DNA from: an uncultured Gammaproteobacteria bacterium
Lineage (GTDB): Bacteria > Patescibacteriota > Microgenomatia > Levybacterales > UBA12049
Length of the DNA stretch: 64,000 nt
Reading direction: 5' to 3'
Assembly: GCA_964507055.1 (NCBI GenBank)
Contig: CAZDOJ010000001.1
Coordinates: 13,210 to 77,209 of the forward strand
How positions within the stretch are numbered: position 1 is the stretch's first letter; the number at the start of each line of letters is the position of its first letter. A program made the position numbers and the translations under genes. Shown here piece by piece: positions 12,545 through 62,697 of the stretch. The notes beneath the pieces were generated by a model. It was not told the origin of the DNA and ran no database searches. It worked only from the letters and a program-made list of their open reading frames with translations.

Positions 12545-12555
12545 AAGAATAACAG

Positions 12556-13507: not shown

Positions 13508-13581
13508 GACAGTTATCTTACACATTCAGCAGATATATCCTGAACCCACATATAGCTGAATGGAAGTTGAAGGATATTATT

Positions 13582-14478: not shown

Positions 14479-14517
14479 TTCTTGATTCTTACTTCATAAT
14501 TCTTTATTCTATAACCT

Positions 14518-14973: not shown

Positions 14974-14982
14974 ACCTATTTT

Positions 14983-37661: not shown

Positions 37662-37666
37662 TATAA

Positions 37667-38845: not shown

Positions 38846-38846
38846 T

Positions 38847-39899: not shown

Positions 39900-39960
39900 T
39901 GGCCTATAATAGTTTTATTTTTAATCATTTCATGGTATAATCCCAAAAGACAAGCCATCC

Positions 39961-41019: not shown

Positions 41020-41054
41020 TTGCTTTTTGTGCCCAATTTGTTACAATACCGCCT

Positions 41055-42089: not shown

Positions 42090-42116
42090 TCAAAATGAAT
42101 TTGGTATAATCCCCAC

Positions 42117-43289: not shown

Positions 43290-43319
43290 TTATTATTTAA
43301 AAAGAATATAATCCCGTCA

Positions 43320-44556: not shown

Positions 44557-46401
44557 ATGGTAGAACAATCAAGAAGAATTGCACCACAGGGAAGTCGTAC
44601 TTTTCGTGGTACAGATGTGTCCGCAATGCATGCAGAAATGCAAGGTATCCTTACGGCTTCGAGAGATAATGATCCGCATGCCTCCACAATAGACTCATAT
44701 AGAAAGATTGCTGATGCACTTCCTCTACGGGTTCCAGCTGCTACATACCAAGCCGTTAGTGAATCTATCAATAATCCTGATCCCGTGATTTCAAAAGCTG
44801 GGAAGGAAGTTTTTACTTGGCTAAATATAAAGACTGTAATTTCAGTTGCAGAAAGATATTCGGGAGAAGGTTTGGGAGATGTTGAAGATTTCGCTCAGGA
44901 AGGGGTTACTATCCTTTATGAAAATGTAGACACAATTCATCAGAGGGCAGATAGTTCTATGTATACTTATCGTTTGGCTGAAGAGGCTCTGACTAATAGT
45001 ATTGCTCGTGAGCATGGATTTAGTGTTACTATGAGCGAAAATAGAGTTGCATTACCTATTGGTCAGACCGTGACTGAATTATTTGATAATGCTCCCTTAG
45101 GGGTTGATGAAGTAGGGCTTGAAAGGCAAGCAGTAGTATTAGCACAGAAATTTGGAATTACTGAAGATGCTGCATTTAAATATCTCTCAAGGAGGAGTGC
45201 ATTGCAGCCAATTCACGAAAGTAAGATGCAGCCAGAACGTGAGGATACAGAGGTAATAGAAGATATTATGGTTTTAGATGAGCTTCTGAGGATGCTTCCT
45301 GAAAGGAATGAACAAATGCTGCGGATGAGATTTGGGAATGGTTTTACACTAGATGAAATTGCCCAACGCTACAACCTGGTTCCTGAACGTGCTCGTCAAA
45401 TAATTGCTAAAACAATTAAATCATTACAGCATGAGCAAGTTATCGATTTTGTTACAGGGGGAGTTAAACCCGCATCTCGAAGTCAGCGAATAATGACATC
45501 AGATGGAGAAGAGGGGCAGGATATTGAAGATGTCATCCGCGAAAAGCGTTTGGCTGGATATGGTGAATCTGGATCAGGTTCGTGGGCTGAATCTAGAAAG
45601 GAATTGGCTAATATTGCACATGCATTCTTAGCTGAGCCGCAAATTGGGTATCCGGAAATTGCAAATAGGCTTGGAATTACAGTAGATAAAGTAATTTATA
45701 GTGTACAAACTCTTCGTTCAAAATATTTGTTACCAGATGCTAATGCAGGTAAGCATGCAAAAATAACTCCCGATGATGGCAACAGAACATTGCAGGAAAG
45801 ACTACATTCACGATATGAAAGACAAGAATCCGAGATTGTAGTTCCGCCAATTCAGGGGGAAAGAGAAACAAGTACTATCCCAGCAATTGAGGACACTTCT
45901 TCTAAATCGAAACCACCATCAGAAAGAACACTTCGTGCTTTAATTTTGCAAAAACAAGCGTGGAAGTTACAGCAAGAAGACGGAAAAACGTACGATGAGA
46001 TTTCTGAAATACTCAATGTTAGTCTAGGATCCATACGAAGATATCTTCAAAACGAACGGCGAGACCTTGGTCTTGCAAATCAGACGAATGTCGGACGTCC
46101 TAAAGATCCTGAGGTGCAAGCTAGAAGAGCCGTTTTGGCTGAGAGAATTAAAGCTGGTGAGCCTCTTAGAGTTCATGGATTTGCTAAAGAGTTTGGTACT
46201 ACTGTAGGTACTATAAATTTTGATATACGTGAAATTTTGAGTGGATATCATACTTCTTCATCAGAGACAACAATATTTTCTCAAGAAGAACATGCTTCGC
46301 AACAGCCTAAACTTGAGGAGCCAGAGGTTACGATCGCTGATGTAGCTGTCGATTGGGATGGTACCGATGATCCTGAAGCAGGTCCTCAACGAACTTTATA
46401 A
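44557..46401 (+). CDS. tail-family protein T15: sigma-70-family N-terminal half + extra HTH modules
   Basis: Region 2-like NIKTVISVAERYSGEGLGDVEDFAQEGVTILYENVDT. Region 4.2-like LPERNEQMLRMRFGNGFTLDEIAQRYNLVPERARQIIAKTIKSL. Further HTH-like segments are present. C-terminus VAVDWDGTDDPEAGPQRTL. Confidence 0.8.
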   Translation: MVEQSRRIAPQGSRTFRGTDVSAMHAEMQGILTASRDNDPHASTIDSYRKIADALPLRVPAATYQAVSESINNPDPVISKAGKEVFTWLNIKTVISVAERYSGEGLGDVEDFAQEGVTILYENVDTIHQRADSSMYTYRLAEEALTNSIAREHGFSVTMSENRVALPIGQTVTELFDNAPLGVDEVGLERQAVVLAQKFGITEDAAFKYLSRRSALQPIHESKMQPEREDTEVIEDIMVLDELLRMLPERNEQMLRMRFGNGFTLDEIAQRYNLVPERARQIIAKTIKSLQHEQVIDFVTGGVKPASRSQRIMTSDGEEGQDIEDVIREKRLAGYGESGSGSWAESRKELANIAHAFLAEPQIGYPEIANRLGITVDKVIYSVQTLRSKYLLPDANAGKHAKITPDDGNRTLQERLHSRYERQESEIVVPPIQGERETSTIPAIEDTSSKSKPPSERTLRALILQKQAWKLQQEDGKTYDEISEILNVSLGSIRRYLQNERRDLGLANQTNVGRPKDPEVQARRAVLAERIKAGEPLRVHGFAKEFGTTVGTINFDIREILSGYHTSSSETTIFSQEEHASQQPKLEEPEVTIADVAVDWDGTDDPEAGPQRTL

Positions 46402-48695: not shown

Positions 48696-48731
48696 AAATG
48701 TCAGGTTTGTTGAGCTAAATTTTGCTATAAT
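48693..48731 (+). promoter_or_regulatory. junction repeat TAGAAATGTCAGGTT + TGcTATAAT (T17)
   Basis: A 15-mer at 48693-48707 that includes the T16 stop codon and is identical to 50766-50780. The -10 element is at 48723-48731. Confidence 0.55.
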
Positions 48732-48737
48732 CCCCGA

Positions 48738-50768
48738 ATGAAAGAACTACTCAGAGCGAGAAAATCATTTTTGAGAGGAGAACCCCTCCGTCATAATCCT
48801 GGTGATGATGATCGGACCCAGGATAAATTTGCTAACGTACCACATGGTGGTCCCCAAAAAGAAGGAAGATTACCAGGAGAAAGAATTAGTGATCAACAGC
48901 GTGATGAGGTGCTATCCGGAGTTCTCAATAGTGAAGTAAAGATGCTCGTTTTGGCGGGAATGGTTCTGGACCCTGAAGTATACACTGCTGGAGATCTCGA
49001 TAGTATGATACGGGATATGCAACGTGGACAAAAAGGTTGGAATTTAAGTAGCAACATAGCATTCGGGTACTGTCTCAATTCTTTCGATGGGATTGGACTA
49101 GTCGCAAAAAGTGAACCTGTAAACGATCGGACGACCTTGGGATTTAAAGCAACACAAAGAGGCAAAGACACGTTACCAGTTATTGGACATCTCTTGGATT
49201 TCTCACTGAAACATCCAGATATAGCTTTGCGGCGTGTCTTTTCAACAACTGCTTCTCCTTCAAAGGCCACGGCTGAAGGCGAACAAGCTGGAGACTATAA
49301 AGTCCGTGCTCCCAAAAGACGATTTCGTATTCTTAAAGCACTCGTCGAGAACGAGGGGCCACTACGTGAGTCAGATATGCGAAAGCTTGTAAATAATTCA
49401 TCTGTTGAGTTGCATCTGGAAAGCCTTCATAACATTGGGCTTATAACTTATGAGAACACAAGAGTTGGTGCAGATCATATCACCTATACAGTTATTCCAG
49501 ATGCTATCTCTGATGTTCATGCTCTGCCTTCTATTCCAACGTCAACCGATAACCAGCTGCAATTACGTGCAGCATATATTACCTCAAAACTTTCGGGTGA
49601 AATTTCTCCAAAAGATGTATATGAACGATTAGTCGCTTTATTCCCACAATATAAAGAACGGGATCCTCGTGGTACAGAAAAGGTAATAAATAGAAAGCTC
49701 CATCACATGTCAATGCATGGATTTATAGAAAAAGGGAAACGCACAATAGACCGAAAAACAGATATCTCAGTAACTGAAGAACAGCGAGAAACTATAGCTG
49801 AGATCGTGGGAATTATTGATGCATTTCAGGCAGGAGATCCGACATTCTTAGCAGAAGGAGAACAGAAAGCTCGACGAATTATCCAAAATCCTGAGGCAGC
49901 AGCTACTCTTATGCGTAAGGCTCAGGAAAGTTCGCATACAGCTCTTGCTCTTGGTCAAGCAGAATTGAAGAGAAGATTAGTGACTTTTGCTGAACAAAGC
50001 GAAGGTCCGATAACAAGTGTGCTTGCTGCTGAATATCTGGAGCATCGTGTGGGTAAAAGTTATGCTGGTGCGATATTACGAGAACTTGCAAGAGAAGGAA
50101 AGATACAGGTTGAATCACGGGGTCAAGTTATAAGATATGGTCCTGTCGCTCCGCAGGAACAAGAGATCCCTTTGCCTGAAGATAAGCGAGGTTTAGAACA
50201 AGTTGCAGTTACGGTAAATGCGGAGATTAAGCCATTTGCTGATGGTATCAAGTTGCTTCTTGCTGCATATGCTTCACATACCGATCCTCAGTCAGAATCA
50301 GCTCTTGAAGTAATGGATCAAATTCGTTCTGTACGAGCACTGCCTGAATATGCACATCTCATTTCGAAACGTGATCAGATAGAACAACGGCTTGCTGTTA
50401 TTGCATCAGAAGAGGCTGGTATCGAGTTAGCGAATGAAGAACCCGTTGTAGAAACAGAAGTTGAGATGCAAGAAAATACGGAGGTTGTTCTGAAACCCCA
50501 AAATAGTCCAAAATCGAAGACAGTTGAGCTTCGTGAGCGAATTCAAGCCTTTAAGGATTTAGGAGTATCTGATTCTAGCGAAATTGCACAATGGATGGGT
50601 GTAAGTAGATCTACCATCACAAGACATATTCGGCAGATGCAAGCACAAGAAACACAAGAAGAACCCATACTTCCTGCAGTTGAAGATCAGCCATTAAGTG
50701 CATTAGATGCTGGGATTGATTGGAGTGGAGATGATGATCCTGATCCCGGTTTACAAAGAACACTTTAG
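48738..50768 (+). CDS. tail-family protein T17 (family C, winged-helix/HTH-rich)
   Basis: The first ~130 aa are homologous to T18. HTH-like segment SEIAQWMGVSRSTITRHIRQM. C-terminus AGIDWSGDDDPDPGLQRTL. Confidence 0.85.
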   Translation: MKELLRARKSFLRGEPLRHNPGDDDRTQDKFANVPHGGPQKEGRLPGERISDQQRDEVLSGVLNSEVKMLVLAGMVLDPEVYTAGDLDSMIRDMQRGQKGWNLSSNIAFGYCLNSFDGIGLVAKSEPVNDRTTLGFKATQRGKDTLPVIGHLLDFSLKHPDIALRRVFSTTASPSKATAEGEQAGDYKVRAPKRRFRILKALVENEGPLRESDMRKLVNNSSVELHLESLHNIGLITYENTRVGADHITYTVIPDAISDVHALPSIPTSTDNQLQLRAAYITSKLSGEISPKDVYERLVALFPQYKERDPRGTEKVINRKLHHMSMHGFIEKGKRTIDRKTDISVTEEQRETIAEIVGIIDAFQAGDPTFLAEGEQKARRIIQNPEAAATLMRKAQESSHTALALGQAELKRRLVTFAEQSEGPITSVLAAEYLEHRVGKSYAGAILRELAREGKIQVESRGQVIRYGPVAPQEQEIPLPEDKRGLEQVAVTVNAEIKPFADGIKLLLAAYASHTDPQSESALEVMDQIRSVRALPEYAHLISKRDQIEQRLAVIASEEAGIELANEEPVVETEVEMQENTEVVLKPQNSPKSKTVELRERIQAFKDLGVSDSSEIAQWMGVSRSTITRHIRQMQAQETQEEPILPAVEDQPLSALDAGIDWSGDDDPDPGLQRTL

Positions 50769-50804
50769 AAATGTCAGGTTCACTACAATGAAGTTTGTTA
50801 TAAT
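50766..50804 (+). promoter_or_regulatory. junction repeat TAGAAATGTCAGGTT + TGtTATAAT (T18)
   Basis: A 15-mer at 50766-50780 that includes the T17 stop codon. The -10 element is at 50796-50804, with the ATG 6 nt later. Confidence 0.55.
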
Positions 50805-50810
50805 CCCCAA

Positions 50811-53528
50811 ATGAAAGAACGATTTCGAGAAAGACGTATACAAAGGGAGGTTTTACGACATCATCCTGATCCGGGCGAACAGGATAAATTTTCGCAAGGT
50901 GGAGCACATCCTGAAGTTCCTGGTGAACGGAGAGAAAGAGTATCGACACAGAAGATTGATGAACTCCTGGCAGGAGTGTTTAATAATGAATCCAAGATGA
51001 TTGTCCTTGGTGGGATGATCCTCAATCCTCACTGGTATTCAGATCAGCAGCTTCATGATATGACAATGCGGATGCAACGAGGAGAGCGAGGATGGGGCAT
51101 TGGAAATCACATTCCCTTTGGTTACTGTCAGGATTCTTTTGATGATATCGGACTTGTTGCAAAAAATGAAATCGATGGGGCTCGCGATAGTTTAAAATAT
51201 CATGTGACCCAAGATGGTATTAGTGCACTTCCTGCTATTGGTCATCTACTTTCGTTTGTTGAAGAATCAGGCATCTCTTTGCATAGAACTTTCTCAACAA
51301 CGAGTACTCCTTCTTCAGCAGCGAGTATTGATTCTGAGGAAGAACATAATGATGATCGTGACATACGAAAACGTGCACCAAAGACAAGGTATAGAATTTT
51401 TAAACAATTACTTGCTCATGAAGGACCAATACAAAAAGTTGATTTACAAGAAAATCTCAACGTGAATGGGAGTTCTCTCGGGCACCATTTAAGAAACCTC
51501 AGTATTGAAGGTATGCTTGACTATCAAAGCTATTATGATGGTGAACCACTCGCTGTTACATATCGCATCAATGCAGATGCTTTTCAAAAGATAAACTATG
51601 ATGATCTTCCACGAGATGCAAGATCAACGATTACAACGATTACGAGACGAGTTGCTTTTATTGCTGCTCATATGGAAGGGACTGTTACTCCTGCTAAAGT
51701 GCATGAAAAATTGCTTGCTCTGTATCCTCAATATGCAGAGAGAACTGAGGGTCATGTTCGAAGCAGCGTGAATCGTGCCTTAACGCATCTTGCAAAACAT
51801 GAGTATCTACAGCGAGGAGAGATCTCTGCAGATCGTCCTTCATTAATCTCTTTAACTGATGAGCAGCGAGAAAGAATGCAACAACTTGTAACGATCATCG
51901 ATACATTCCAATCAGGTGATCCCGAATTCTTAGCACAAGGTGAGCAAAAAGCCCGCGAAATTTTAAATGATCCTCAAAGAGTAGCACGATTAATGAGACA
52001 CGCACAAGAAAATTCTAGAATAGCATTAGCTTTGGGGCCTGCGGAGTTAAAACAGATGATCATCGAAATCATTAAAGATAGTGACACACCATTATCCGGA
52101 GCGAGAATTGTGCCGTTGATGGACCATCGGATTGGACAGCCGTATGCAACAGCTTTATTAAAGCAATTATATGATGGTGGTGAAATAGCCTTGGTAAGTG
52201 AAGGAAGATCAAAATGGTATGGAAAACTTCAAGAAACAGGAGGTGTTGACGCATTACCCGAAGATAGAGATGGGTTAAGATCATCACTGCAACAAGTTAC
52301 TGCTGAATTTCAGCCATACGAAAATGGCCTGGGGCTTTTATTTGCTGCTTTAGACACGCATGATCCAGCGTCAGCAGATGCCCGAGAGGTTTTAAATCAG
52401 ATTGAATATGTCCGCATGGATCCTGAATATCGAAGACTTAAAGGTAGAATCGACACTATACAAGATAGGCTGGAGAGTTTCGCTGATGAAATTGAAGATG
52501 AAGCAGTTGCGGACGAAACTCAGGTTAGAAAAAGAACACCACGCCAAAGTTCGGTCGTCATTCGCCAACGGATAGATGCTTTTAGGGATTTAGGGATTAC
52601 CAATCAAAGCGAAATTGCACGTTGGATGGGCTTCTCTCCTGATAGTTTGAAATATCATTTCCAGTCGATGGACGATACGCTTAATAGAGCAATATCTCCT
52701 GAGCGAATGGCAAAAATTGATATATCCAGAGCATTGCGTGATCAGGATCAATTAACTCCCGCACAAATTGCAGAACGGATGGGTACCACTGAGAGTACAG
52801 CTCGTGCATATCTCGAACTTGCAGATGATGCTGAAAGGCTTGCAAATCAACGCGAAGTAACTTCTCCTTATCAAGATCGCCTTGTTAGAGTCCGCGAAAT
52901 GGAAGAAGAGTGGGGTGACATGATGCAAGTTACACCGATGGTTCATCAAATGGCTGCGGAGTTAGGCCTATCTGTTGCATCGATCCATAATTATCGAAGA
53001 GAACTTTTTGCGACACGTGCTCGAGCAGCAAGAGTACGGGAAGGCCAAATAGAACAGGTCCGAGCGATGACTGAAGAGTTACAGCAGCTTCCTAACCAAG
53101 AACGTGTATTAGTGATTGCTGAAAGACTAGGATTAAATCGATCAACTGTATATCGCTTTCAAGATAAAGCATTTGGAGTTGCAGAGCAAAGAAAAGTAGG
53201 AATTGCTGAGCGACGTGCACGGGTTGCCCAGCGTTCAGAAGAGCTTCGTGCAATGGGAATCCCTATAAAAGAAGCTGCAAAAGTTATTGCTGAAGAAGAA
53301 GGTGTCTCTCCTGGGACGATAATGTTGGACAGAAGAGCTTTATTACAATCACAGCGAGAAGCCACACAAGCAGAAAATCTATCATCTTCTGTAGAAGAAA
53401 CCATTGTTTATGAGGCAGATCATAGCTTGCCTGATCTTTCGTCAGAGCAATCATTAAATACCTTCAATGAAACAATTGACTGGTCTGGTGAAGATGATCC
53501 GGATATTGGACAACACAGGACACTTTAG
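50811..53528 (+). CDS. tail-family protein T18 (family C, multi-HTH)
   Basis: At least 5 HTH-like segments: IARWMGFSPDSLKYHF, IAERMGTTESTARAYL, MAAELGLSVASIHNYR, IAERLGLNRSTVYRF, IAEEEGVSPGTIMLDR. C-terminus ETIDWSGEDDPDIGQHRTL. Confidence 0.85.
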   Translation: MKERFRERRIQREVLRHHPDPGEQDKFSQGGAHPEVPGERRERVSTQKIDELLAGVFNNESKMIVLGGMILNPHWYSDQQLHDMTMRMQRGERGWGIGNHIPFGYCQDSFDDIGLVAKNEIDGARDSLKYHVTQDGISALPAIGHLLSFVEESGISLHRTFSTTSTPSSAASIDSEEEHNDDRDIRKRAPKTRYRIFKQLLAHEGPIQKVDLQENLNVNGSSLGHHLRNLSIEGMLDYQSYYDGEPLAVTYRINADAFQKINYDDLPRDARSTITTITRRVAFIAAHMEGTVTPAKVHEKLLALYPQYAERTEGHVRSSVNRALTHLAKHEYLQRGEISADRPSLISLTDEQRERMQQLVTIIDTFQSGDPEFLAQGEQKAREILNDPQRVARLMRHAQENSRIALALGPAELKQMIIEIIKDSDTPLSGARIVPLMDHRIGQPYATALLKQLYDGGEIALVSEGRSKWYGKLQETGGVDALPEDRDGLRSSLQQVTAEFQPYENGLGLLFAALDTHDPASADAREVLNQIEYVRMDPEYRRLKGRIDTIQDRLESFADEIEDEAVADETQVRKRTPRQSSVVIRQRIDAFRDLGITNQSEIARWMGFSPDSLKYHFQSMDDTLNRAISPERMAKIDISRALRDQDQLTPAQIAERMGTTESTARAYLELADDAERLANQREVTSPYQDRLVRVREMEEEWGDMMQVTPMVHQMAAELGLSVASIHNYRRELFATRARAARVREGQIEQVRAMTEELQQLPNQERVLVIAERLGLNRSTVYRFQDKAFGVAEQRKVGIAERRARVAQRSEELRAMGIPIKEAAKVIAEEEGVSPGTIMLDRRALLQSQREATQAENLSSSVEETIVYEADHSLPDLSSEQSLNTFNETIDWSGEDDPDIGQHRTL

Positions 53529-53534: not shown

Positions 53535-53570
53535 CCTGTAGTAGAATTTTGAGCCTAAATTTGGTATAAT
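53535..53570 (+). promoter_or_regulatory. island junction promoter: CCTGTAGTAG-N20-TATAAT (T19)
   Basis: Box at 53535-53544 and TGgTATAAT at 53562-53570. ATG follows 6 nt later. Confidence 0.55.
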
Positions 53571-53576
53571 CCGCAA

Positions 53577-56027
53577 ATGGTAGAACAAAGAGGACCAACT
53601 TCAGAAAAAGTTGTGACTGCAAACGGCCGTCAAGAACGTCGTAAGGGCCCGAAAAAGCGTGTAACGATGATCCACCTCATCCATACTGATGCTGCTGCTG
53701 AGGAGCATCTCACCCCATTTGAACAAGGTATTCGTGATGCCGTCCAAAGAAATCCTGAGCTTACTAAAAAAATTGGTGTATTCATGGAAGATACATCTAT
53801 GACAGCTGCTCAAACAGCTTTTATAAATGCTAAGATTTCAGCAGGCTCCCTTCCTTCAGAAGCAATGCTTGACTGGCATGTTAAGGAGTATCAGGAGCGT
53901 GAAAATGGGGCAGAACCATATGCGGAGGATGTTAAGAGACTTGGAGAAGTTCTTTCAACAGGATTTTATGGTAGAGCCAGAGAAATCGCAGATAGAACTT
54001 TTGCTGAATACCCAGGAAAACTTTTTCTTATTTCAGAAGGTCATGCTGAGCACACGCATGTTCATATTGATAAAGGACCACAACCGCAAACGAAACGAAG
54101 GGGGTTTTTCCCGAAACGCAAGGCTGAGGGACCCGCTCCTAAGAGCGAAGAAGAAATGTTGGAGGCAATGAAAGAGAGGATTGTGTCTTTATCATCCAGC
54201 CTTCGAGCTCGTGATACTAAGATAGTCCAAAATATCGACGAGGCACTGGCAAGAGATGACGTTGCTGAAGTGGTTGGATGGGTTGGGGCAGTACATACTC
54301 CCGTAGGGCATGAGTTAAGTAGGAAATATACAGTGAAGCGTATCTTTCCCGATAAGCAAGATGGTGTTTTTTTCTATTCTCCGGGACAACAGCTTACAAG
54401 GAAGGCAACAATGGATCCGGAATATATTCCTACTCATGCAGAAATTACTCAAACCCGTTTGTCTCACCAAGCCGCTCTTTCTGAGCTGAAAGCTGAAGGA
54501 GCAATCCCAGCAACCTATGACCGGCAGGGGCATGATGGTGCTATATCTCAACAAATAATTAGACGTGAATACGATTGGATGAAGAGGCAAAATACCCCTG
54601 AAGCTACTCCCAGGTTGGCAACTGTTGATATAGTGGCTCAAACTCTACGAGATCGGGAACAAGATTATGCGAGGATTAAGGCAGAAGAAGCCCGAGCTGC
54701 ACATCCGGACTATCCGTTTACACTGCGTATACAACCCGATCAACCAGAATGGGCGATTTTGAAAGCTGCAGGGATGTCTGCTGAAAAGATTAATTCAGGT
54801 ACATTTACTCGACAGGAATTACTCGATGCCGGCTTCTTATTCAAAAACACACTGAATTCAGGAGAAAAAGGAATTATAAGTGGAAAGATACCAGATCCAG
54901 AAGATCCAGAAAAAGAAATTGATTTTACAGGACGGAAGTTGTTAACGAGAGCGGAGGTAGAAATGGTATATGCGTATCAGCAACAACATCCTGAAGTTTA
55001 TGGACTACAAGGTCATGATATCGATGAAGTACGAAATGATATGTTGAGTTTCATGCGTGAAGCTGTGCGTACCGATCCCTTTGAATATAATAATGATTTT
55101 CTTCGTAAAGCACTTCCTTATGATCGAGCTCAAATGGGTTGGGAAATGGACTGGGAACAAGATGAGGCAGATCTGATAGAAAAATTCTGGAGAGCTGAAG
55201 AAAAGAAATATGTGCGAAGTGATCAAGATCCAGAAAAAACGAGAGATTCGAAATGGAGAGCCGCTTGGATACGTGTGAGAGAGAATTTTGCTCGAACACA
55301 ACTTGCTGATCTCTATACTTTGAAAGATGAAGGTACTAAAACTGCTTATTTTAACCGTAAAGAGGTGCGTGGTATCACAACAGAAACGAAAAATATGGTA
55401 CGTGGAGGAAGTGTTTTAAACGAGCCTTCGCCTTTTCTTGATAGTGGATTTTTCTTTGGTCGTAATATTGATATAGATCTTTGGATGAAAGAACAGACTG
55501 GTGATACTGAGGGCGTACACAGAAGGCTCAACGTAGTAAATGTCCATCTTATCGGTGCTCATCCAGAATTCCCGGGTTTTAGTGAAATGGGCACTCAAGG
55601 TTGGGATCAGCGATATATGACTCCAGGAGAATATGTACGAGAGCTCTATCCAGAAGATGAGGCAGTTCGTACCGCAGTACAGACTCAAGAAGCCACACTG
55701 GCTGCACAAGTCTTACATATAGATAAAATCATTAAAGAATCACATGTGCGATTACTAGCAGCTGTTAAAAAATGGGATGCGGAACGAGGAATATTAGGTC
55801 TAAAAGAAATTTTCAAGCGACCTGCATCAGAGTATGCTCCTCAGGCTAAAAATATTGTTGAAGGTGAAGACTATGGAGAAGCGTTACGGGTAGATTCCAC
55901 GGAAACAACAGTTGCGTCAGGAATGCCACAATTGAGCTCTGATAACACACCGCTTGCTGAGATTGATTTACAGATTGATTGGGGAGGAGAAGGAGATCCA
56001 GATCTTGGTGCACATAAGTCTCTATAA
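53577..56027 (+). CDS. tail-family protein T19 (family A domain fused to ~500-aa unknown C-terminal region)
   Basis: The N-terminal ~300 aa carry MIHLIHTD, IGVFMED, LPSEAM, YPGKLFLISEGH, VGWVGAVHTPVGHEL and RIFP. C-terminus LQIDWGGEGDPDLGAHKSL. Confidence 0.85.
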   Translation: MVEQRGPTSEKVVTANGRQERRKGPKKRVTMIHLIHTDAAAEEHLTPFEQGIRDAVQRNPELTKKIGVFMEDTSMTAAQTAFINAKISAGSLPSEAMLDWHVKEYQERENGAEPYAEDVKRLGEVLSTGFYGRAREIADRTFAEYPGKLFLISEGHAEHTHVHIDKGPQPQTKRRGFFPKRKAEGPAPKSEEEMLEAMKERIVSLSSSLRARDTKIVQNIDEALARDDVAEVVGWVGAVHTPVGHELSRKYTVKRIFPDKQDGVFFYSPGQQLTRKATMDPEYIPTHAEITQTRLSHQAALSELKAEGAIPATYDRQGHDGAISQQIIRREYDWMKRQNTPEATPRLATVDIVAQTLRDREQDYARIKAEEARAAHPDYPFTLRIQPDQPEWAILKAAGMSAEKINSGTFTRQELLDAGFLFKNTLNSGEKGIISGKIPDPEDPEKEIDFTGRKLLTRAEVEMVYAYQQQHPEVYGLQGHDIDEVRNDMLSFMREAVRTDPFEYNNDFLRKALPYDRAQMGWEMDWEQDEADLIEKFWRAEEKKYVRSDQDPEKTRDSKWRAAWIRVRENFARTQLADLYTLKDEGTKTAYFNRKEVRGITTETKNMVRGGSVLNEPSPFLDSGFFFGRNIDIDLWMKEQTGDTEGVHRRLNVVNVHLIGAHPEFPGFSEMGTQGWDQRYMTPGEYVRELYPEDEAVRTAVQTQEATLAAQVLHIDKIIKESHVRLLAAVKKWDAERGILGLKEIFKRPASEYAPQAKNIVEGEDYGEALRVDSTETTVASGMPQLSSDNTPLAEIDLQIDWGGEGDPDLGAHKSL

Positions 56028-56078
56028 CTTGAATATAAGGCTAAATTCAACTATAATACCCCGATACATTAGATAACT

Positions 56079-57275
56079 ATGACTGAGACACGAAAACCAA
56101 GAGAACCCTTCAAATTGAGTAAGCCAGTGAACCCAGCATACAGAGCAGCTTCAAAAAGATGGTCAGACCATCCAACGGCTGTAGACTTCACCAATTATGC
56201 TGACTACCACTGGGTTGAGAAATTTAATGAACATTCCAGAGCTGGAAATAAAATTGCAGCATTAGGATGGTTGCTGGCAGGACAAACCCGAAAGTCATTT
56301 ATGACCCGATATGATATCGTAGGTCGAAATGAAGTTGCTCCTCGGATGAGTGATGCTCAAAAGCAGACAATCAGTCGTTTTGAAACAGTCCAAAAAGTAA
56401 CAAATATCATAAAACGTGCACTTGAAGATAGTGAGACAAAAAAGCGTAGACCAAAGGAGCCACTTAGACATAGAATTGCTCGGTATAAGGATGTTTTTGA
56501 TTCAGCGAGAGCAAAAAGAAGAGAGAGAATCGATAATGGAGGAGGACTTTTTAATACGGCATTTTCTACATTTGTTCCAGATAAAGGAATTGAAAATGCA
56601 TATAAGAGTAAAGTAGCACGGCAATATGGACCATCTGATGAGGAGTCTGCTCAACAAGGGGTGGCTGAAAAAGAACCTAAAAACACTTTTGATATAGGTC
56701 ACGGATTGACCGTAGACTTTGATCAAGCTCGAGATGCTGGACTTGATGCCGTAGAAGGTAGATTGGGGCCGATAACTGGAAATGAGACTAACCAGGAACT
56801 AAATGCTCGAAAAGCAATCGCTGCAGAAGCAAGAAAAAAGGATATTCAAGGCCAATTAGATAAACAGCGTGCAGATTTTGATGCTGGACGTGAAAGTCAG
56901 GGGCTTGATCCAGTAGATCATGCAGGAGAACCAGATGCTGATGCTGCAATAGCAAAATACCTCGAAGCAAAAAAGACAACGTCGGAGACTCCGCAAGCTT
57001 CTGTACCGGATATGAAGGGTGTAAAAATAACAATGCCAGGATTTCTCAAAAGAGATCCTGATCGAAATAAAACCTTTGAGGAACGTACACTTGCAGAAGT
57101 TGCTAAACGTGTTGCAGAAGCCGAAGCTGCGAAACAGGCTTCAGTTTCCCAAAATCGAAATGGTATGCCTGAGTTATCAGATGATCAAAATGTGCCGCTA
57201 TCGACTCTGGATGAAAGTGTACAATGGGATGGCTCTGACAGTCCACGTGGGGTCGATGGGCCAAAGATGCGATAA
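56079..57275 (+). CDS. tail-family protein T20 (basic/acidic, degenerate tail)
   Basis: C-terminus ESVQWDGSDSPRGVDGPKMR. The W-x-G, acidic and GP-K elements are kept, but the terminal [ST]-L is missing. TATAAT lies 21 nt before the ATG. Confidence 0.8.
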   Translation: MTETRKPREPFKLSKPVNPAYRAASKRWSDHPTAVDFTNYADYHWVEKFNEHSRAGNKIAALGWLLAGQTRKSFMTRYDIVGRNEVAPRMSDAQKQTISRFETVQKVTNIIKRALEDSETKKRRPKEPLRHRIARYKDVFDSARAKRRERIDNGGGLFNTAFSTFVPDKGIENAYKSKVARQYGPSDEESAQQGVAEKEPKNTFDIGHGLTVDFDQARDAGLDAVEGRLGPITGNETNQELNARKAIAAEARKKDIQGQLDKQRADFDAGRESQGLDPVDHAGEPDADAAIAKYLEAKKTTSETPQASVPDMKGVKITMPGFLKRDPDRNKTFEERTLAEVAKRVAEAEAAKQASVSQNRNGMPELSDDQNVPLSTLDESVQWDGSDSPRGVDGPKMR

Positions 57276-57279
57276 CTTC

Positions 57280-58797
57280 TTAAAGTGTTTTCGGTAGATC
57301 TTGATCAGGTTCATCTTCTCCAGCAAAATCAACTGCATCGGTAGGTATTCCATGCTCTGACGCAAAGAATATAGGCATAGCAGCTTTCGTTATCTGAATT
57401 TGTTCTGGTTTTTCTGTAACCTTTGGTTTTGGAGTAATTTCGTCTATCATACCTAATTTTTCTGCTTCATCGCGAAGAGATGGTGCACCTAATGCTTGTG
57501 TGATCGCTGATGAAGACGTATCAATTACTTCTTCAGGCTCTCCAGAAGCTCGAATTTGCTCAACAGGAATACCTCCAATTTCAGTAATTTCATGTGCATA
57601 GCGTAATGTCCCATCAAGATTTTCAATAATTGCAGGTTGTGTCTCTACTTGAGTTTCGGGCTTTAGGCGGATTCTTTTATATTCGTATTGTTTTATCTTT
57701 TTAGGCCTTAGTCGTCCTTTGAGATATCGCTTGATGCGTCCTTCTTCGCCTGCTTCTTGATCTTCAGCTCTGGCTATCTCAGCAACTTCTTTTGTTCCAT
57801 CGTTCAGTGGTCGCCCTGCTATAATTCCTTGTGTCGAAGGTGGTGTAAATCCATTTTCTGTATAGAGCTGCTTCATTCTCGCCGCGTATGTTTTGTCTAC
57901 TTCTTCAGCCTGGCCGTAATCTCCTTGCAAATCAAAACCGAGCATTCTACGAAACTCATCACGTCTCCGTTCAACAATATTTGAAAGATTATCATCTAAT
58001 TCGATGGATGGATTTCCGCCTTTTATCGTTTCGCCTAGTTCAGGGATTTGGGCCATCCATGCATCATGAGCTCTTGCTGCTTCAGGGTGAAAGAGACGAT
58101 TATATCCATTCCATGGAGCAGCTTCGATAGCTGCAACCCATTTTTGGATTATTGCACGACGCTCCATGTATTCAGTGCGAAGTCGGTCACGATCTGCGAT
58201 CTCTTCAGCACTTGAACCAAGCGGATCCCATGGAATAAATGCGACAGTACCTGTAGCTCTGGATTTTCCATTTTTTCTTGGACCAAATAACACACCTCGC
58301 TGATGATCGGGATTTGCAACCGGACATCGACAGGAATAGGTACATACTTTTACTTCACTCTTGGGAATTATTTTATCAGGGGAGATATATACTTTTGCTT
58401 CATCAGTTAGTTCATCAAGGAGCTCTGTTGCAATACTGAGGGAGTCTGTTATCCCGGCTGCCATATCTTGCTCAGTTAATAAGTCCTTGGCTTCAAGTAC
58501 TGCCTGTTTGCCGAGGCGAAGTTCATGCCTTGTCGGTTCTGTTGAAGTTTCAGTGGCCGTTTTTTCTATATCCGTAGGGGAAATACCATGCAGCATTGCA
58601 GCAGTTACAAGTCCATCAGTTGCGAGTCTTCTTGCATCTGGATCATCAATCTGTTGAGCACTAACTAACGCAAAAGAAATAGGAAGCACATATCTATCTG
58701 CAAGTTCTCTCTCAGATTGAGCTGTCCGCTCTCGTGAAGCAGCTGGAATTCCATCCGGATGTGGATGTCTTGGTCGGAATCTATCAGGAGTGTTCAT
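57280..58797 (-). CDS. tail-family protein T21, operonic with the coupling ATPase
   Basis: The ATG lies 1 nt after the stop of 58799-62551. C-terminus DAVDFAGEDEPDQDLPKTL. No relaxase-type motifs noticed. Confidence 0.85.
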   Translation of the reverse strand: MNTPDRFRPRHPHPDGIPAASRERTAQSERELADRYVLPISFALVSAQQIDDPDARRLATDGLVTAAMLHGISPTDIEKTATETSTEPTRHELRLGKQAVLEAKDLLTEQDMAAGITDSLSIATELLDELTDEAKVYISPDKIIPKSEVKVCTYSCRCPVANPDHQRGVLFGPRKNGKSRATGTVAFIPWDPLGSSAEEIADRDRLRTEYMERRAIIQKWVAAIEAAPWNGYNRLFHPEAARAHDAWMAQIPELGETIKGGNPSIELDDNLSNIVERRRDEFRRMLGFDLQGDYGQAEEVDKTYAARMKQLYTENGFTPPSTQGIIAGRPLNDGTKEVAEIARAEDQEAGEEGRIKRYLKGRLRPKKIKQYEYKRIRLKPETQVETQPAIIENLDGTLRYAHEITEIGGIPVEQIRASGEPEEVIDTSSSAITQALGAPSLRDEAEKLGMIDEITPKPKVTEKPEQIQITKAAMPIFFASEHGIPTDAVDFAGEDEPDQDLPKTL

Positions 58798-58798
58798 A

Positions 58799-61700
58799 CT
58801 ACTTACCTAACTTTGGTGGCCCATCGTCTTTGCCTTTTTCATTTTTCTTTTCCATTTCATTGTAAAGTTCAACTTCTTGCTCCATAGTAAGTGGTGCATC
58901 TAATTCAGGACGAGGTTTTGGTTCAATTGCTGTTGTTTGTCCTCCAAGTACTTGTTTATCCGTTGGTGTGATATTTTGCGTTGGCTTAACTGTCTCTCCT
59001 TCAATAACAAATGAATCAGGTCTTCTTGCTAGTTCTCCACGTGGTTTTGGTCCAAGTCTTGGCCGTAGTGCTTCTATCTGTTTTGCAGTGACCAACTCAA
59101 CAAAGATTGGTCTACCATTTTTAAGTGCTACAATTCCTGTAAAGTCAGGCAATCTTGTAATATCTTCAGGTCTGACGATTGGTTCCCGTACGTCCTCATC
59201 AGTTTTTGTTGTTACAGTGATTTCTGGAATTCTTTGGCTTGGGTTCGTCGTCCTACTTATCTCTCCGCCTTTTCCTCGAGTAGTCGTTGTGCTGCGAGGC
59301 GTTCTATGTGCTGGAGTTGTTGCTTTACTTTCTTTTGTTACGGTACGAGTATGTTGTCCGAAATATGCACTAAATTCGTCAACAGTGGCTTTGTCATCAA
59401 GATTTGGGAGGAGTAATCTACCACCATGACTGTTACTTCTTACTGTAACATATCCATCTTGGGTCCAAATTCTTCGAGCCTGTCCACCATCTTGTATTGC
59501 CCCGAGATATTGCTGCCATCTCTTTCGAGAAAGTGCTAAGAATTGATCGTAGTTACGAATTGGTGCAATATGAGGCAATTCGTCCAGAGCTCCAAGCATT
59601 CGTGGTCCCATAGGTAATCCTTCGACACCGCGTCTTTCTGAATTTTCACCATGTGCTCTAAAATGTGTCATAAGATGTGCAAGGAAGAGCCCTCGGTATC
59701 GTTCTTGATCTGATTCGTGAGCCATCATATAAAGTGATGGACGATTTTCAAAGGTATCATCACTATACATAGTATTGGGATCAATTTCATGTACTTTCGT
59801 TGCATCTTGCACTTTTGGATCTGTCCAAGGTTCAAGTGCTTGGCGTGCCATTGTAATAGCTGATCGTGCGTTTTCTGCACCCGTTCGTAAACCTTCTTTT
59901 AAGTCGAGAAGTGCATTCCATGCCTGGACTGAATCTGATCGGAGTGCCAGACCTTCTCTAATTTTTTCTTGGTCACCGTAAGCTGCACCCTCAGCAATTA
60001 TTCTTCGTGCTTCACCTTCCTGCCATACACAGAATCCAGCAAGTTTTGGTAGGGGACTAAGTTGTCCTTTGATTGTAAAGCGTTGAGCGGCTTCAAGAAC
60101 GTGACCCATATGTCGGGGAGATTCCATATTATATCGTCCGTTGATATACAGTAATGGAGTCATCAACATACGTGCTTGACTATGCCAATAGTCCATATTG
60201 GAGTCGCTATCATTACCTTTGCTTATTCCACTGATAAGTTCGTTTGCAATTTTCATTGACTCAGACCATGTCCGTGTATGTTCAAGTGGATTCCATCGAT
60301 GGGTGCCTTCTCCTGAAGTATCAAGCGGATCCCATCTGTATACATCTCCATGAGAACGAGCCCAACCTTCAGTTTTTTTCCAGATTTCACTTCCAACAGC
60401 TGTTGATATCACCAGACCTCGTCTTGCGAGAATATTTGGAACAATGATTGATTCTGATTTACCTTGTCCTGTTGGTCCAACAACAAGTCCATGTCCACCT
60501 TCTCCTCCAGCAATGAGTCTTCCGCTACTTCGTCCCCAGATGATCCTGTCTCCGAGTTTATCTATGTTTCTGCTTGCGAAATAATCTTGTCTAGACATTT
60601 CTCTTCGTGTAGGCCAACCATATTCTGGATCTCCACGTCGACTTCTGCGACGCATTGCACGTGTATCATCGATCATCTGTTGGACGACAAAATCAACCCC
60701 ATCTCTCATTGCTCTCATAATTTCTGACTGGCTTCTGAATTCTGTTTGTTCAGTTATTCTTGTAGGACCATCGATATCTGGCATTCGTTCAGGGCGGGGA
60801 ATAACTCGTGTTCTTAGATGTTGAGGTTCTCTTCTTGTTGGGTTTGTTGAGGCTTCAGTAACCACTGGCTTTGCGTTGTCAGGGTGAGCTGGTTCTTTAC
60901 CCGTAGCGGGGACCACCAATACACCATTAACAAATTTCAGTTTTTCTGTTTGCTCCTCAACGGGAATATTTGGTGTACCGTCGAGTGGGATCGTACCTCG
61001 AATTTTGTCGGGAGTTAATGTGCTGAGGTCTTCTCCTGCAGGTACAATAATAAGATTCCCTTCATGAACAACAAGTCGTGCATTTGGGATTGAGCGTCGT
61101 TCTGTCCAGTGTACTTCGACTGTCTCAGCTTTTTCTCCACCGGACCAAAGGCGAATAGTTGTGTGCTCATTAACTTTTGTTTCAAAATACGTACCTTCCT
61201 CAGTTGACCTCTTTATTGCATTCTCACTGATTTCTCTCCATTTTTCATTGTAATCCTTCACAACTTGAGTAGCTGGTGCTTCCATCCGTGATCCTACTTT
61301 TTGCAATTCTTTTTGTACATCAGCAGCGAAAAGATCTAGATCTGGAAGTTCCTCTATATTTGGTAAACTAGGATCTTGATTTACTTTTGTTACTGTGCCT
61401 TGTAAGTCTTTCGTGGTGGAATTTTGTGTAAGCCTAATACCAAACTCAAGCGTTTCCCATTCTTTTTGTGTGAGGGGTCCTGATTTTTCTTTTAATCGTT
61501 CGGTTAAACCTGTGAGATCTGTTTCTATATGAGCAAGTATCGTAAATGCTGCATTTTGTCTTTGCACCTGGGTTCTGATTTCCTCTGGAATCGCTTCTAC
61601 CGGAAGATCTGATAATCGTTCAATAAGTTGATAATCAATATATTTAATGAGGACATTTCCCAATACTTTCTTTTCTGTTTCGGTTAGAGATTTTAGATCT

Positions 61701-62551
61701 CGTTGCATTTCATCTTCTGGAAGTGCAATTTCATCAGCAGTAGTTTCTTCAGCACCAGAAGGGTATGAAGGTGGTATCTTTCTATCTTCGACGGGAGCAC
61801 CTTCGGCTGAAACAGTTTGTTTCTGTGTTCCAGTTGTTTGTTCTTCTGAGCCGACTTTTTCAGTAACAGGAGCTTCTGTTGTCGAAATATCTTCTGTGCG
61901 GATTGTAGTTTGCAGGCCTGTATCTATCGTTGCTTGCTGATCTGTATCATCCGTAGATTCTCTACTACTGGAACCTGTTTGATGATCACTTCCTGTAGTA
62001 TCCTGCTCTGTGTCTGAACGATCATTCCCATGTGCATCGTCCTGACTAGATGTATCTTGTCTATCTGTCTGTTGGCTGTCTTCATTCGCTGTTTCTTGTT
62101 GTTCGGTTCTGACCTGATTTCTTTCAGTTTCTATTTGTGGTTGCTGAGGAACTTCATCACGAATAAAGGCTTGTTGTGTAAGAATACCTGCTCGTATATT
62201 AGATATTGGGTCTCGATCTCGTCCTAAGTAATTCTCATTTAAATTGGTCTGTAATTCTCCCGGGTTAGTTTGTGCAATGTCATACAGAGCAGATCCAATT
62301 TGATCAACTGTTTCTATTTCTGGGTTTCCAGTTAGTGTCCGAGCAATGTCTACATATGCAGCTTTAAGTGGAGCTTCTGCTCGTATAATTTGTTCTGCTG
62401 AGGGCCTATCTTTTCCGATAGATTTTGTGGCTTGTCTGCGAATATCTCCCAATACGAAAGAATTAATCCGTGCAATCCCAGCAGTTCTTGGATCAACTGC
62501 TTGATCTTTATGTTCATCTCCTGGTCTGCCAATTGGCCTTTCTGCTGCCAT
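58799..62551 (-). CDS. VirD4/TraG-family type IV coupling protein-like ATPase with ~690-aa N-terminal extension
   Basis: Walker A: GHGLVVGPTGQGKSESIIVPNIL (coding 60455-60478). Walker B region: LGALDELPHIAPI. GAIQDGGQ is also present. These match the TraG/VirD4 pattern. No hydrophobic TM segment is evident. Confidence 0.8.
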   Translation of the reverse strand: MAAERPIGRPGDEHKDQAVDPRTAGIARINSFVLGDIRRQATKSIGKDRPSAEQIIRAEAPLKAAYVDIARTLTGNPEIETVDQIGSALYDIAQTNPGELQTNLNENYLGRDRDPISNIRAGILTQQAFIRDEVPQQPQIETERNQVRTEQQETANEDSQQTDRQDTSSQDDAHGNDRSDTEQDTTGSDHQTGSSSRESTDDTDQQATIDTGLQTTIRTEDISTTEAPVTEKVGSEEQTTGTQKQTVSAEGAPVEDRKIPPSYPSGAEETTADEIALPEDEMQRDLKSLTETEKKVLGNVLIKYIDYQLIERLSDLPVEAIPEEIRTQVQRQNAAFTILAHIETDLTGLTERLKEKSGPLTQKEWETLEFGIRLTQNSTTKDLQGTVTKVNQDPSLPNIEELPDLDLFAADVQKELQKVGSRMEAPATQVVKDYNEKWREISENAIKRSTEEGTYFETKVNEHTTIRLWSGGEKAETVEVHWTERRSIPNARLVVHEGNLIIVPAGEDLSTLTPDKIRGTIPLDGTPNIPVEEQTEKLKFVNGVLVVPATGKEPAHPDNAKPVVTEASTNPTRREPQHLRTRVIPRPERMPDIDGPTRITEQTEFRSQSEIMRAMRDGVDFVVQQMIDDTRAMRRRSRRGDPEYGWPTRREMSRQDYFASRNIDKLGDRIIWGRSSGRLIAGGEGGHGLVVGPTGQGKSESIIVPNILARRGLVISTAVGSEIWKKTEGWARSHGDVYRWDPLDTSGEGTHRWNPLEHTRTWSESMKIANELISGISKGNDSDSNMDYWHSQARMLMTPLLYINGRYNMESPRHMGHVLEAAQRFTIKGQLSPLPKLAGFCVWQEGEARRIIAEGAAYGDQEKIREGLALRSDSVQAWNALLDLKEGLRTGAENARSAITMARQALEPWTDPKVQDATKVHEIDPNTMYSDDTFENRPSLYMMAHESDQERYRGLFLAHLMTHFRAHGENSERRGVEGLPMGPRMLGALDELPHIAPIRNYDQFLALSRKRWQQYLGAIQDGGQARRIWTQDGYVTVRSNSHGGRLLLPNLDDKATVDEFSAYFGQHTRTVTKESKATTPAHRTPRSTTTTRGKGGEISRTTNPSQRIPEITVTTKTDEDVREPIVRPEDITRLPDFTGIVALKNGRPIFVELVTAKQIEALRPRLGPKPRGELARRPDSFVIEGETVKPTQNITPTDKQVLGGQTTAIEPKPRPELDAPLTMEQEVELYNEMEKKNEKGKDDGPPKLGK

Positions 62552-62579
62552 ATTTTTGGTATATGTGTAAGAAATGATG

Positions 62580-62588
62580 ATTATAACA
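62580..62588 (-). promoter_or_regulatory. extended -10 (TGtTATAAT) for the coupling-ATPase operon
   Basis: The reverse complement of attataaca is TGTTATAAT, 28 nt upstream of the ATG at 62551. No SD in between. Confidence 0.45.
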
Positions 62589-62654
62589 TAGGATATGATT
62601 AATGAAAAGCTTGGTAGATTAATGTGATCAAAAAATCATACAGAAATCATACAT

Positions 62655-62690
62655 CCTGTAGTAGTATTTTTACCAGTTTTTTGATAAAAT
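62655..62690 (+). promoter_or_regulatory. island junction promoter: CCTGTAGTAG-N20-TAAAAT (T23)
   Basis: Box at 62655-62664 and TGaTAAAAT at 62682-62690. ATG follows 7 nt later. Confidence 0.5.
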
Positions 62691-62697
62691 ATCCACC

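Follow-up and report, generated by a model that had tools for sequence, protein, structure and literature searches.

A tail-bearing protein encoded one nucleotide behind a VirD4/TraG-type ATPase: a candidate coupling-protein client in a Patescibacteria gene island

What is the role of a gene that starts a single nucleotide behind the stop codon of a type IV coupling protein? In the 64-kb stretch of contig CAZDOJ010000001.1 analysed here (the window; all coordinates refer to it), a gene called T21 stands in this position on the minus strand, downstream of an ATPase gene and facing a long array of plus-strand genes whose products share a C-terminal tail. A reading of the letters without database searches (the sequence-only reading) had proposed T21 as an adaptor, a chaperone or a first substrate of the ATPase. 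Our results are compatible with the substrate and speak against the adaptor or chaperone, because T21 is a 56-kDa protein with the tail and the layout of a client. In the explanation we favour, to which we give a probability of about one half, T21 would be a client of the coupling ATPase that bears the tail, is conserved, occurs in single copy and is co-expressed with its receptor. The argument starts from the following features (aa, amino acids; nt, nucleotides).

57280-58797, minus strand: T21 coding sequence, 505 aa, 56 kDa, isoelectric point (pI) 5.1, from the open reading frame (ORF) and its translation
58799-62551, minus strand: ATPase, a VirD4/TraG-type type IV coupling protein of 1250 aa, with a TAG stop and without a transmembrane segment
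58795-58801, minus strand: coupling junction TAG-t-ATG (ATPase stop 58801-58799, spacer base 58798, T21 ATG 58797-58795)
62580-62608, minus strand: promoter-like site of the ATPase-T21 bicistron from a promoter scan, TTTTCA-17-TGtTATAAT, whose -10 ends 28 nt before the ATPase ATG
56079-57275, plus strand: T20, 398 aa, pI 9.0, the tail protein that closes the plus-strand series ahead of T21
57276-57279, no strand: gap of 4 nt between the convergent stops of T20 (ending at 57275) and T21 (stop codon 57280-57282)

Across the junction the minus strand reads GGTAAG-TAG-T-ATG-AAC. The T21 ATG is the sole possible start (the stop-to-stop frame opens 3 codons upstream), and the resulting N-terminus, MNTPDRFRPR, aligns with MLPDRAPIRKP and MHPDRREPRS of two homologues. 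Since these two distant homologues exist, T21 is a real gene. Of all tail genes it is the only one without a -10 box of its own, and it therefore depends on the ATPase transcript; only a weak AGGT is found 10-13 nt upstream, within the 3′ end of the ATPase gene. The 1-nt spacing, the missing box and the promoter-like site before the ATPase together make a strong case for an operon, in agreement with the sequence-only reading. T21 would thereby be transcribed with a soluble VirD4/TraG-type ATPase and probably be translated by termination-reinitiation. The stop-1 nt-ATG arrangement is not unique to this pair, for it recurs between the array genes T8 and T9 (TAA-t-ATG at 38843-38849). The gap between T7 and T8 is 5 nt (37659-37669).

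At the other end, the 4-nt gap between the convergent stops and the absence of a terminator hairpin, both noted from the letters, are borne out by computation. A scan of 56000-64000 gave no terminator-like site at the T20/T21 junction, and a 100-nt fold over the junction was not stabler than shuffled sequences (z = +0.35 and +0.81 for the two strands). The sole inverted repeat nearby is an 11-nt palindrome.

The array itself is organised in another way. A TATAAT-like box ends 6-9 nt before the start in 13 of the 19 plus-strand array genes (window background 3.7%). It is mostly an extended -10 TGnTATAAT, TTTGnTATAATCC, as in tttgTTATAATccccaaATG; examples from window positions 27030-56080 lie at 50794-50813, 53560-53579, 48721-48740 and 42100-42119. 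No Shine-Dalgarno sequence was found before the box-bearing array genes, and most array genes look like individually transcribed, leaderless messages. The regulation of T21 would thus be distinct: 1:1 co-expression with the recognition ATPase from a message with a leader of about 20 nt, compared to mostly separate leaderless transcripts for the other tail genes. This fits a pilot, early or constitutive client. The same layout of a box near the start is also seen at the housekeeping genes rseP (16938), proS (22831), glyA (10206) and zwf (19686).

The upstream partner of T21 is a divergent type IV coupling protein with the following parts.

59105-60517, minus strand: coupling-protein nucleotide-binding region, aa 679-1149, as delimited by the Pfam stretches
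60455-60478, minus strand: Walker A, GPTGQGKS, at aa 692 (motif position)
59573-59596, minus strand: Walker B, LGALDELP, at aa 986 (motif position)
60632-62551, minus strand: N-terminal extension, aa 1-640, without a Pfam or PHROG match and with an acidic, Thr/Ser/Asp/Gln-rich low-complexity stretch at about aa 150-215

The match to PF02534 (101.8-104.9 bits, 5e-29) is far above the cut-off of 20.1, and PF12696 and PF10412 likewise exceed theirs. PF02534 covers the roughly 295 residues that separate Walker A and B, where an all-alpha domain would be expected. Identity to plasmid TraG/VirD4 is 22-25%, the VirD4-like matches in NCBIfam fall below the equivalog cut-offs, and a search of the PDB by sequence gave no match. 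In a word-index search the full-length ATPase retrieved itself alone, the query probably being swamped by the low-complexity N-terminus. The ORF cannot extend upstream. Because an N-terminal transmembrane domain (TMD) is missing, the protein falls in the 'lacking TMD' subgroup of coupling proteins, a recognised minority of which one example, TraJ of pIP501, has a small membrane partner (PMC7434980).

We also considered type VII secretion, with its WXG100 and YxxxD/E signals, its substrates formed as helical hairpins of about 100 aa that carry WxG in the turn, and its EssC/EccC ATPases of the FtsK/SpoIIIE type, and rejected it. The W-x-G found here lies in the terminal tail of large proteins, and the ATPase matches T4SS-DNA_transf, not FtsK_SpoIIIE.

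The array facing T21 consists of 20 consecutive plus-strand genes (24938-57275), including one of 110 aa (33347-33679), which share the C-terminus ..IDWxGxDDPDxGPxR[ST]L. On the far side of the ATPase the plus strand, now divergent, encodes at least four further tail proteins (527, 372, 883 and more than 211 aa), read on locus L001, whose positions 1-6100 correspond to window 62698 to about 68800. The first of these begins within the window.

62698-64000, plus strand: opening part of the tail protein that follows, 527 aa, divergent from the ATPase, ending in ..IDWAGENDPDTGPRRTL at about 64281 (mapped through L001)

The island thus runs on past the ATPase, and therefore the ATPase-T21 pair is an inverted two-gene unit inside it, not its end. 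In total the island encodes at least 25 tail proteins, T21 included (at least 24 besides T21).

We built a tail hidden Markov model (HMM) from 19 plus-strand tails and ran it on all six-frame segments of the window. Every plus-strand tail was matched (E 2.5e-7 to 8e-17, 27-57 bits), together with one small ORF at E 0.03. On the minus strand the model found T21 alone, at its very C-terminus (E 1.2e-3, 15 bits), so T21 is indeed the only minus-strand tail protein, as had been noted.

57283-57372, minus strand: C-terminal tail of T21, aa 476-505, IFFASEHGIPTDAVDFAGEDEPDQDLPKTL, net charge -7, a divergent copy of ..MP.L..(x)..IDWxGxDDPDxGPxR[ST]L

This tail is the weakest of the set (15 vs 27-57 bits), with W replaced by F and GPxR[ST]L by LPKTL. 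To compare tails more directly, the last 35 residues of a protein were aligned by Smith-Waterman with the tails of a locus, using 500 shuffles as control. Against the window tails, T21 has a mean score of 38.6 compared to 20.2 +/- 1.6 for shuffled sequences (z = 11.5, reached in 0 of 500 shuffles). T21 and the other candidate substrates have a C-terminal element in common, the mark looked for in type IV substrates.

Over their last 30 residues the array tails are acidic (net charge -3 to -8). A hydropathy scan found no signal peptide or membrane segment in any tail protein, which makes the Sec route unlikely for them. The recognisable bodies in front of the tails include sigma-70 regions 2 and 4, with region 4 present twice (44557-46401), a FAD/NAD(P) oxidoreductase (27053-28978) and two proteins with multiple helix-turn-helix (HTH) domains (48738-50768 and 50811-53528); most remaining bodies are orphans. 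If exported, the sigma-70, HTH and oxidoreductase proteins would be candidate reprogrammers of host transcription. Several array families have 2-7 paralogues in the window; T21 has none. The 527-aa protein at 62698 is a paralogue of the 39961-44513 family.

T21 itself can be divided as follows.

58402-58710, minus strand: N-terminal helical bundle, aa ~30-132, the sole confidently modelled part (AlphaFold2 predicted local distance difference test, pLDDT, 70-90 in both runs)
57805-58620, minus strand: conserved core of the T21 family, aa 60-331, from the invariant columns of the three-sequence alignment A1 and the phmmer stretches 64-214 and 70-374, including TPPS
58297-58344, minus strand: invariant motif C152-T-Y-S-C156-x-C158-x3-N-P-x-H165-x-R167 (alignment A1)
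57373-57720, minus strand: probably disordered linker, aa 360-475, pLDDT 28-44, almost without secondary structure, 58% P/E/S/T/Q/K/D/G

The overall pLDDT is 47.5 from the single sequence and 48.7 from the three-sequence alignment; residues 197-360 are predicted as helical with low confidence. The order of body, low-confidence linker of about 115 residues and tail is the layout of the array proteins. Because T21 carries both the tail and this layout, it is most likely a client and not a tail-less adaptor. Neither a signal peptide nor a transmembrane segment was detected (hydropathy maximum 0.92).

Further invariant features of the three sequences are the N-terminus M-x(1-2)-PDR and TPPS at aa 318-321. 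The motif CTYSCxC-x3-NPxHxR, with three Cys and one His within 14 residues, suggests a metal or catalytic site. As H165 is the only invariant His, the family has no conserved HxH or His-triad.

Searches with T21 returned next to nothing outside this family. Pfam gave no match for T21 or its two homologues even at E <= 10; NCBIfam, PADLOC and the PDB (by sequence and by profile) gave none for T21; and PHROGs listed nothing but one family of unknown function at E 0.074. A tblastn search of 72,556 plasmids and 50,697 phages was empty, the family patterns had no relatives in GTDB genomes, JGI metagenomes or IMG/VR, and in word-index searches full-length T21 and the three-sequence profile each retrieved T21 alone. 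No specific fold match was obtained for the helical bundle. Judged by sequence, T21 is one of a new three-member orphan family.

Three other identities considered for T21 found no support. It is no distant paralogue of other array proteins, for the HMM and hhalign align the tail only. A small membrane partner of the type of TraI of pIP501 is not supported by a protein without transmembrane helices. A chaperone or adaptor of the VirE1 or IcmS/IcmW type does not match a protein of 505 aa that bears the substrate tail itself.

Is the gene kept in relatives, and is it kept beside the ATPase? An exhaustive phmmer search of 1.84 billion representative proteins gave two T21 relatives, P0003 (409 aa, E 1.5e-8), found on contigs L007 and L008, and P0004 (512 aa, E 1.9e-5), found on contig L009. 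Both lie inside homologous islands, and the L007 and L009 lineages have a guanine-cytosine content of 44-45%. Their neighbours are related to array families of the window (L007_5488 to 48738/50811, 3e-14; L007_9058 to 24938, 5e-14). The shared tails of these islands are entirely different: ..GAWH.T...VY[FL]xGxGxE...DRGR in L007 (359-13181) and ..VLxAYGMEE...[VI]LDI[DE]E in L009 (3-5482). Tails therefore evolve fast between lineages, yet they are common to the genes within each of the three loci.

In all three loci the T21-like gene stands on the opposite strand, convergent with the next array gene across a gap of 29 nt (L007), 0 nt (L009) or 4 nt (window). In L007 and L009 it has its own promoter region, within a divergent intergenic region shared with the array gene upstream. 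Apart from the missing ATPase, this matches the arrangement in the window. TGgTATAAT (L007) and TGaTATAAT (L009) end 28 nt before the ATG of the T21-like gene, as TGtTATAAT does before the ATPase in the window, and a second TATA-like element is found about 6 nt before the ATG in the ATPase and in both T21-like genes. Since no ATPase lies upstream in either relative, the ATPase-T21 pair is not conserved in the relatives seen. Conservation of the pair had been set beforehand as a test, and for these two relatives the outcome is negative; the contigs are short (13 kb read of 24.9 kb for L007, 5.5 kb for L009), and an ATPase elsewhere nearby is possible. The conserved feature is the place and orientation of T21 in the array, not the pair. 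This layout suggests that the ATPase gene was inserted between an ancestral T21 promoter and T21, or was lost from there elsewhere.

Each of the two relatives has a tail that comes closest to the tails of its lineage (z = 3.4, reached in 4 of 500 shuffles; z = 2.8, reached in 5 of 500), with all cross-lineage comparisons at z <= 2.4. In this shuffle-controlled sense the tail of T21-like proteins co-varies with the locus. To say that the T21-like proteins of L007 and L009 obviously bear the local tail would be too strong, as the HMMs are negative and the Smith-Waterman support is modest. Nevertheless, the lineage specificity of the tails and the best fit of each T21-like tail to its own lineage argue for one co-evolving receptor per lineage.

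A coupling-protein gene inside the island, sharp lineage-specific tails and the lack of any other export signal make the coupling ATPase the obvious receptor candidate. Coupling proteins are receptors for C-terminal secretion signals, and the XVIPCD element, for example, binds the all-alpha domain of VirD4 (PMC8740702). We infer that the ATPase recognises the tails and that the tail proteins are exported, in whatever order. The tail receptor would most plausibly be the coupling ATPase, which would pass its clients on to a type IV secretion channel with genes in another part of the genome.

Several known systems follow a similar logic. In Legionella Dot/Icm, effectors carry Glu-rich C-terminal signals, and accessory proteins tune the acceptance of effectors. 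The likeness to the DotL complex with IcmS/IcmW/LvgA lies in a very large repertoire, an acidic C-terminal signal and a coupling-protein complex as reader (here a candidate). However, Dot/Icm signals are loosely defined, compared to the sharp motif found here, its adaptors are small and signal-less, and it belongs to double-membrane bacteria with eukaryotic targets.

The X-Tfe effectors of Xanthomonas and Stenotrophomonas with their XVIPCD (PMC8740702) are alike in having unrelated bodies, one C-terminal element, a chromosomal VirD4-type receptor (again a candidate here) and probably a bacterial target. XVIPCD folds as a domain of about 120 residues and has a tail rich in Gln, whereas the element described here has about 30-40 residues, is acidic and not Gln-rich, and has an aromatic-x-Gly core, IDWxGxDDPD...R[ST]L. 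Unlike X-Tfe, the locus has no evident immunity genes, its ATPase has no membrane domain and a 640-aa N-terminal extension, and at least 25 genes are gathered in one island. By analogy, the locus resembles X-Tfe/XVIPCD-VirD4 and Dot/Icm in logic, with a C-terminal signal common to many effectors and a single coupling protein as its reader (here a candidate), and is a member of neither, because of its 30-residue tail, its soluble ATPase with a large N-terminal half, its single island of leaderless units and its Patescibacterium host, a group not known to have any secretion substrate (PMC11665869, PMC12102498).

TraJ/TraI of pIP501 (PMC7434980) offers a VirD4-family domain without a transmembrane segment, in a monoderm-type bacterium and with an adjacent partner gene. 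In contrast to that partner T21 has no membrane helix and so cannot be the membrane anchor. The conjugative plasmid pIP501 also encodes its relaxase and its channel in a single operon, whereas neither was found here. Closest in host is the monoderm-conjugation-type type IV secretion system (T4SS) of Patescibacteria (PMC12102498), with which the locus shares the phylum, a coupling-protein gene far from virB4 and the lack of a relaxase. The survey that described it reports no type IV substrates or signals, and neither the tail island nor the T21 family is described there.

A number of points weigh against T21 as a client of the ATPase. Recognition of the tail by the ATPase rests on adjacency in one lineage, for no coupling protein was found near the T21-like genes in the 13 kb of L007 and the 5.5 kb of L009. 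The tails of the T21 family are always the most degenerate of their locus, and HMMs of the local tails miss them (P0003 at E 0.32 with the L007 model, P0004 not listed with that of L009); the tail may be decaying or serving another role in this family. Several array proteins, namely the sigma-70 and HTH proteins, could act inside the producer cell. Most coupling proteins need a membrane domain (PMC7434980); the ATPase has none, its hydropathy maximum (1.34 over 19 residues) falling in the Walker A strand. Finally, no VirB4 or channel gene was found in the 64-kb window, and none was recognised in 10 kb upstream or 4.8 kb beyond. Missing channel genes are the usual situation in Patescibacteria, however, as their coupling-protein genes are abundant and for the most part lie far from virB4 (148 of 5,713 are near it) and their relaxases are rare (PMC12102498).

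The same observations can be arranged differently. T21 could be a gatekeeper, adaptor or regulator of the ATPase, whose degenerate tail occupies or primes the receptor and whose 1:1 co-translation sets the stoichiometry, timing the acceptance of the leaderless array products. Its coupling to the ATPase, a promoter class unlike that of the array, its single copy kept at the strand-switch point in three lineages and the systematic divergence of the T21-family tails all suit such a role. The type IV adaptors and chaperones that are known, VirE1 and IcmS/IcmW among them, are small proteins lacking a substrate signal, whereas T21 has 505 aa, a long low-confidence linker and a cargo-like tail. T21 has no similarity to any adaptor in structure or sequence, and its relatives in two lineages do not stand beside an ATPase. 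We therefore consider this role unlikely. In a still bolder version, recognition and gating in an undescribed, tail-dependent protein delivery of Patescibacteria would fall to the ATPase-T21 bicistron. The soluble VirD4-like ATPase would read the short acidic aromatic-x-Gly tails of at least 25 cytoplasmic proteins, sigma-like and HTH proteins among them, for injection into a host bacterium, and T21 would be a pilot or gatekeeper client whose degenerate tail and co-translation set the order. This version strikes us as distinctly improbable.

Another possibility is that the tails are a degron, an assembly tag or the signal of another pathway, and that the ATPase is a lineage-specific insertion behind the T21 promoter, functionally unlinked to its neighbours. 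The absence of an ATPase at the equivalent position in L007 and L009, where the same extended -10 stands at the same distance directly before the T21-like gene, would be explained in this way, as would the lack of nearby channel genes and of a membrane domain. On a chromosome of at least 1.3 Mb, such an insertion would have had to fall exactly where at least 25 tail genes are gathered in an island. A junction as tight as 1 nt is suggestive of selection for co-expression, no export signal of another kind is present in the tail proteins, and coupling proteins are established receptors of C-terminal signals (PMC8740702). A merely incidental adjacency is thus doubtful in our view, and T21 as a client of the ATPase remains the explanation that we prefer.

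The remaining alternative makes T21 a highly divergent relaxase or DNA-processing protein behind its coupling protein, and the locus a conjugative remnant. Relaxase genes typically sit immediately downstream of the coupling-protein gene, and in R388 trwB-trwC and F traD-traI, as here, a coupling protein is followed in tight linkage by a large protein that is itself translocated (T21 being a candidate). Unlike R388 and F, T21 has no relaxase match, His-triad or plasmid homologues, and no oriT or integrative context. Despite the position of T21 and the 39 of 109 Patescibacteria relaxase genes close to a coupling-protein gene (PMC12102498), a relaxase (MOB) is very improbable: neither T21 and its homologues (at E <= 10) nor any other window protein scanned gave a match to a relaxase family, in line with the lack of relaxase-like motifs in the sequence-only reading, the PDB profile search and the plasmid and phage searches were empty, H165 is the sole invariant His, the island sits amid chromosomal housekeeping genes without a tRNA or an integrase domain among the scanned proteins, and the T21 tail is the one borne by the sigma, HTH and oxidoreductase array proteins.

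What depends on the client explanation extends beyond T21. Type IV secretion is essential to the epibiotic growth of cultured Saccharibacteria, in a role called 'completely unknown' (PMC11665869). The locus provides parts that can be tested: the coupling ATPase, a sharply defined motif at the C-terminus, at least 25 proteins as candidate clients and, as one conserved client among these, T21, physically coupled to the ATPase. The island is of higher interest than the coupling of T21 to the ATPase, because with it the question of the type IV cargo of Patescibacteria becomes testable. If the ATPase does recognise the tails, effector candidates of Patescibacteria could be found by motif, and T21 would be a natural first bait. 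If it does not, what is left is an orphan gene that shares its operon with a divergent coupling protein.

The organism was placed through the ribosomal protein S2, the product of rpsB. S2 has 88% identity to that of OZ246394.1, a 1.61-Mb chromosome of a metagenome-assembled genome (MAG) labelled Gammaproteobacteria, 73-76% to MAGs labelled Saccharimonadales and 55-67% to MAGs labelled Levyibacteriota or 'Patescibacteria group'. Based on these rpsB neighbours the organism is a Patescibacterium (candidate phyla radiation). The title of OZ246394.1, 'uncultured Gammaproteobacteria bacterium', is probably wrong, as all other S2 neighbours are Patescibacteria-type MAGs. The T21 protein is present on a 1.32-Mb NCBI contig and on about 10 metagenome contigs.

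Over its leftmost 24 kb the window has the content of an ordinary chromosome, with dcd, two thymidylate-kinase-like genes, thyA, folA, glyA, rpsB, tsf, frr, rseP, pgl, zwf, gnd, proS and genes for VWA/SdrD-type surface proteins. No tRNA or Rfam element was found at the island border and no integrase domain among the proteins scanned; the island is set among chromosomal housekeeping genes.

Within the array, at least seven tail proteins form one paralogue family (38847-44513, 53577-54600, L001 4517-6100 and L009 3-308). The family has the conserved motifs KxVVFTE, LPSDA, EYPGRI and VGWxGAxHTGxxHxL and is found in the L009 lineage too. Alignment A3 of the family gave no relatives in metagenomes or IMG/VR, and an assignment to TraB/TIKI/ChaN-like proteins, considered for its VGWxGAxHT, was dropped, as Pfam gave no support at E <= 10. 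The 110-aa tail protein at 33347-33679 (plus strand; MVESRRRSEPP...NDGQSGPRRSL) has a truncated tail without the IDW core.

The N-termini of the array proteins, T21, the ATPase and their relatives in the two other lineages are rich in Arg, Pro and Glu, for example M..ER.P. We compared the products of genes 24938-62551 and of the L001, L007 and L009 genes with housekeeping proteins. The pattern M-x(1-5)-[ED][RK] is present in 18 of 36 island proteins vs 4 of 26 housekeeping proteins; when a Pro is also required in the next three residues, the counts are 11 of 36 and 0 of 26. In composition, these N-termini have 13% Arg and 8.9% Pro, compared to 5% and 3.4% in the housekeeping set. Either a second signal or some property of translation starts could lie behind them.

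Several listed starts are probably wrong in this light. The GTG/TTG starts given by the ORF finder at 24938, 35098, 39961 and 46434 can be replaced by internal ATGs giving MEKDR.., MRQEREP.. and MIERRPQ.., which match the N-terminal pattern; the ATG at 46443 is additionally consistent with the position of the -10 box. For T9, the listed start at 38784 is probably too far upstream, and the ATG at 38847 gives MVEAYRNN.

Two further gene clusters lie in the left part of the window. VWA and SdrD_B domains, together with dockerin-like C-termini, mark the surface proteins encoded at 582-4812 and 11594-13407, and on locus L034 at 10799-16694, beside a cohesin-domain protein; 12556-13407 encodes a membrane-anchored Hint-domain protein with a Gly-rich C-terminus. 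Together these VWA, SdrD_B, cohesin and Hint proteins may be an adhesion apparatus. Between them, at 4950-11525, stands a compact deoxynucleotide cluster followed by thyA, folA and glyA, in which the dCTP-deaminase-like gene is duplicated (4950-5522 and 6985-7524), as is the thymidylate-kinase/deoxynucleoside-kinase (dNK)-like gene, whose two copies overlap (5601-6281 and 6278-6967).

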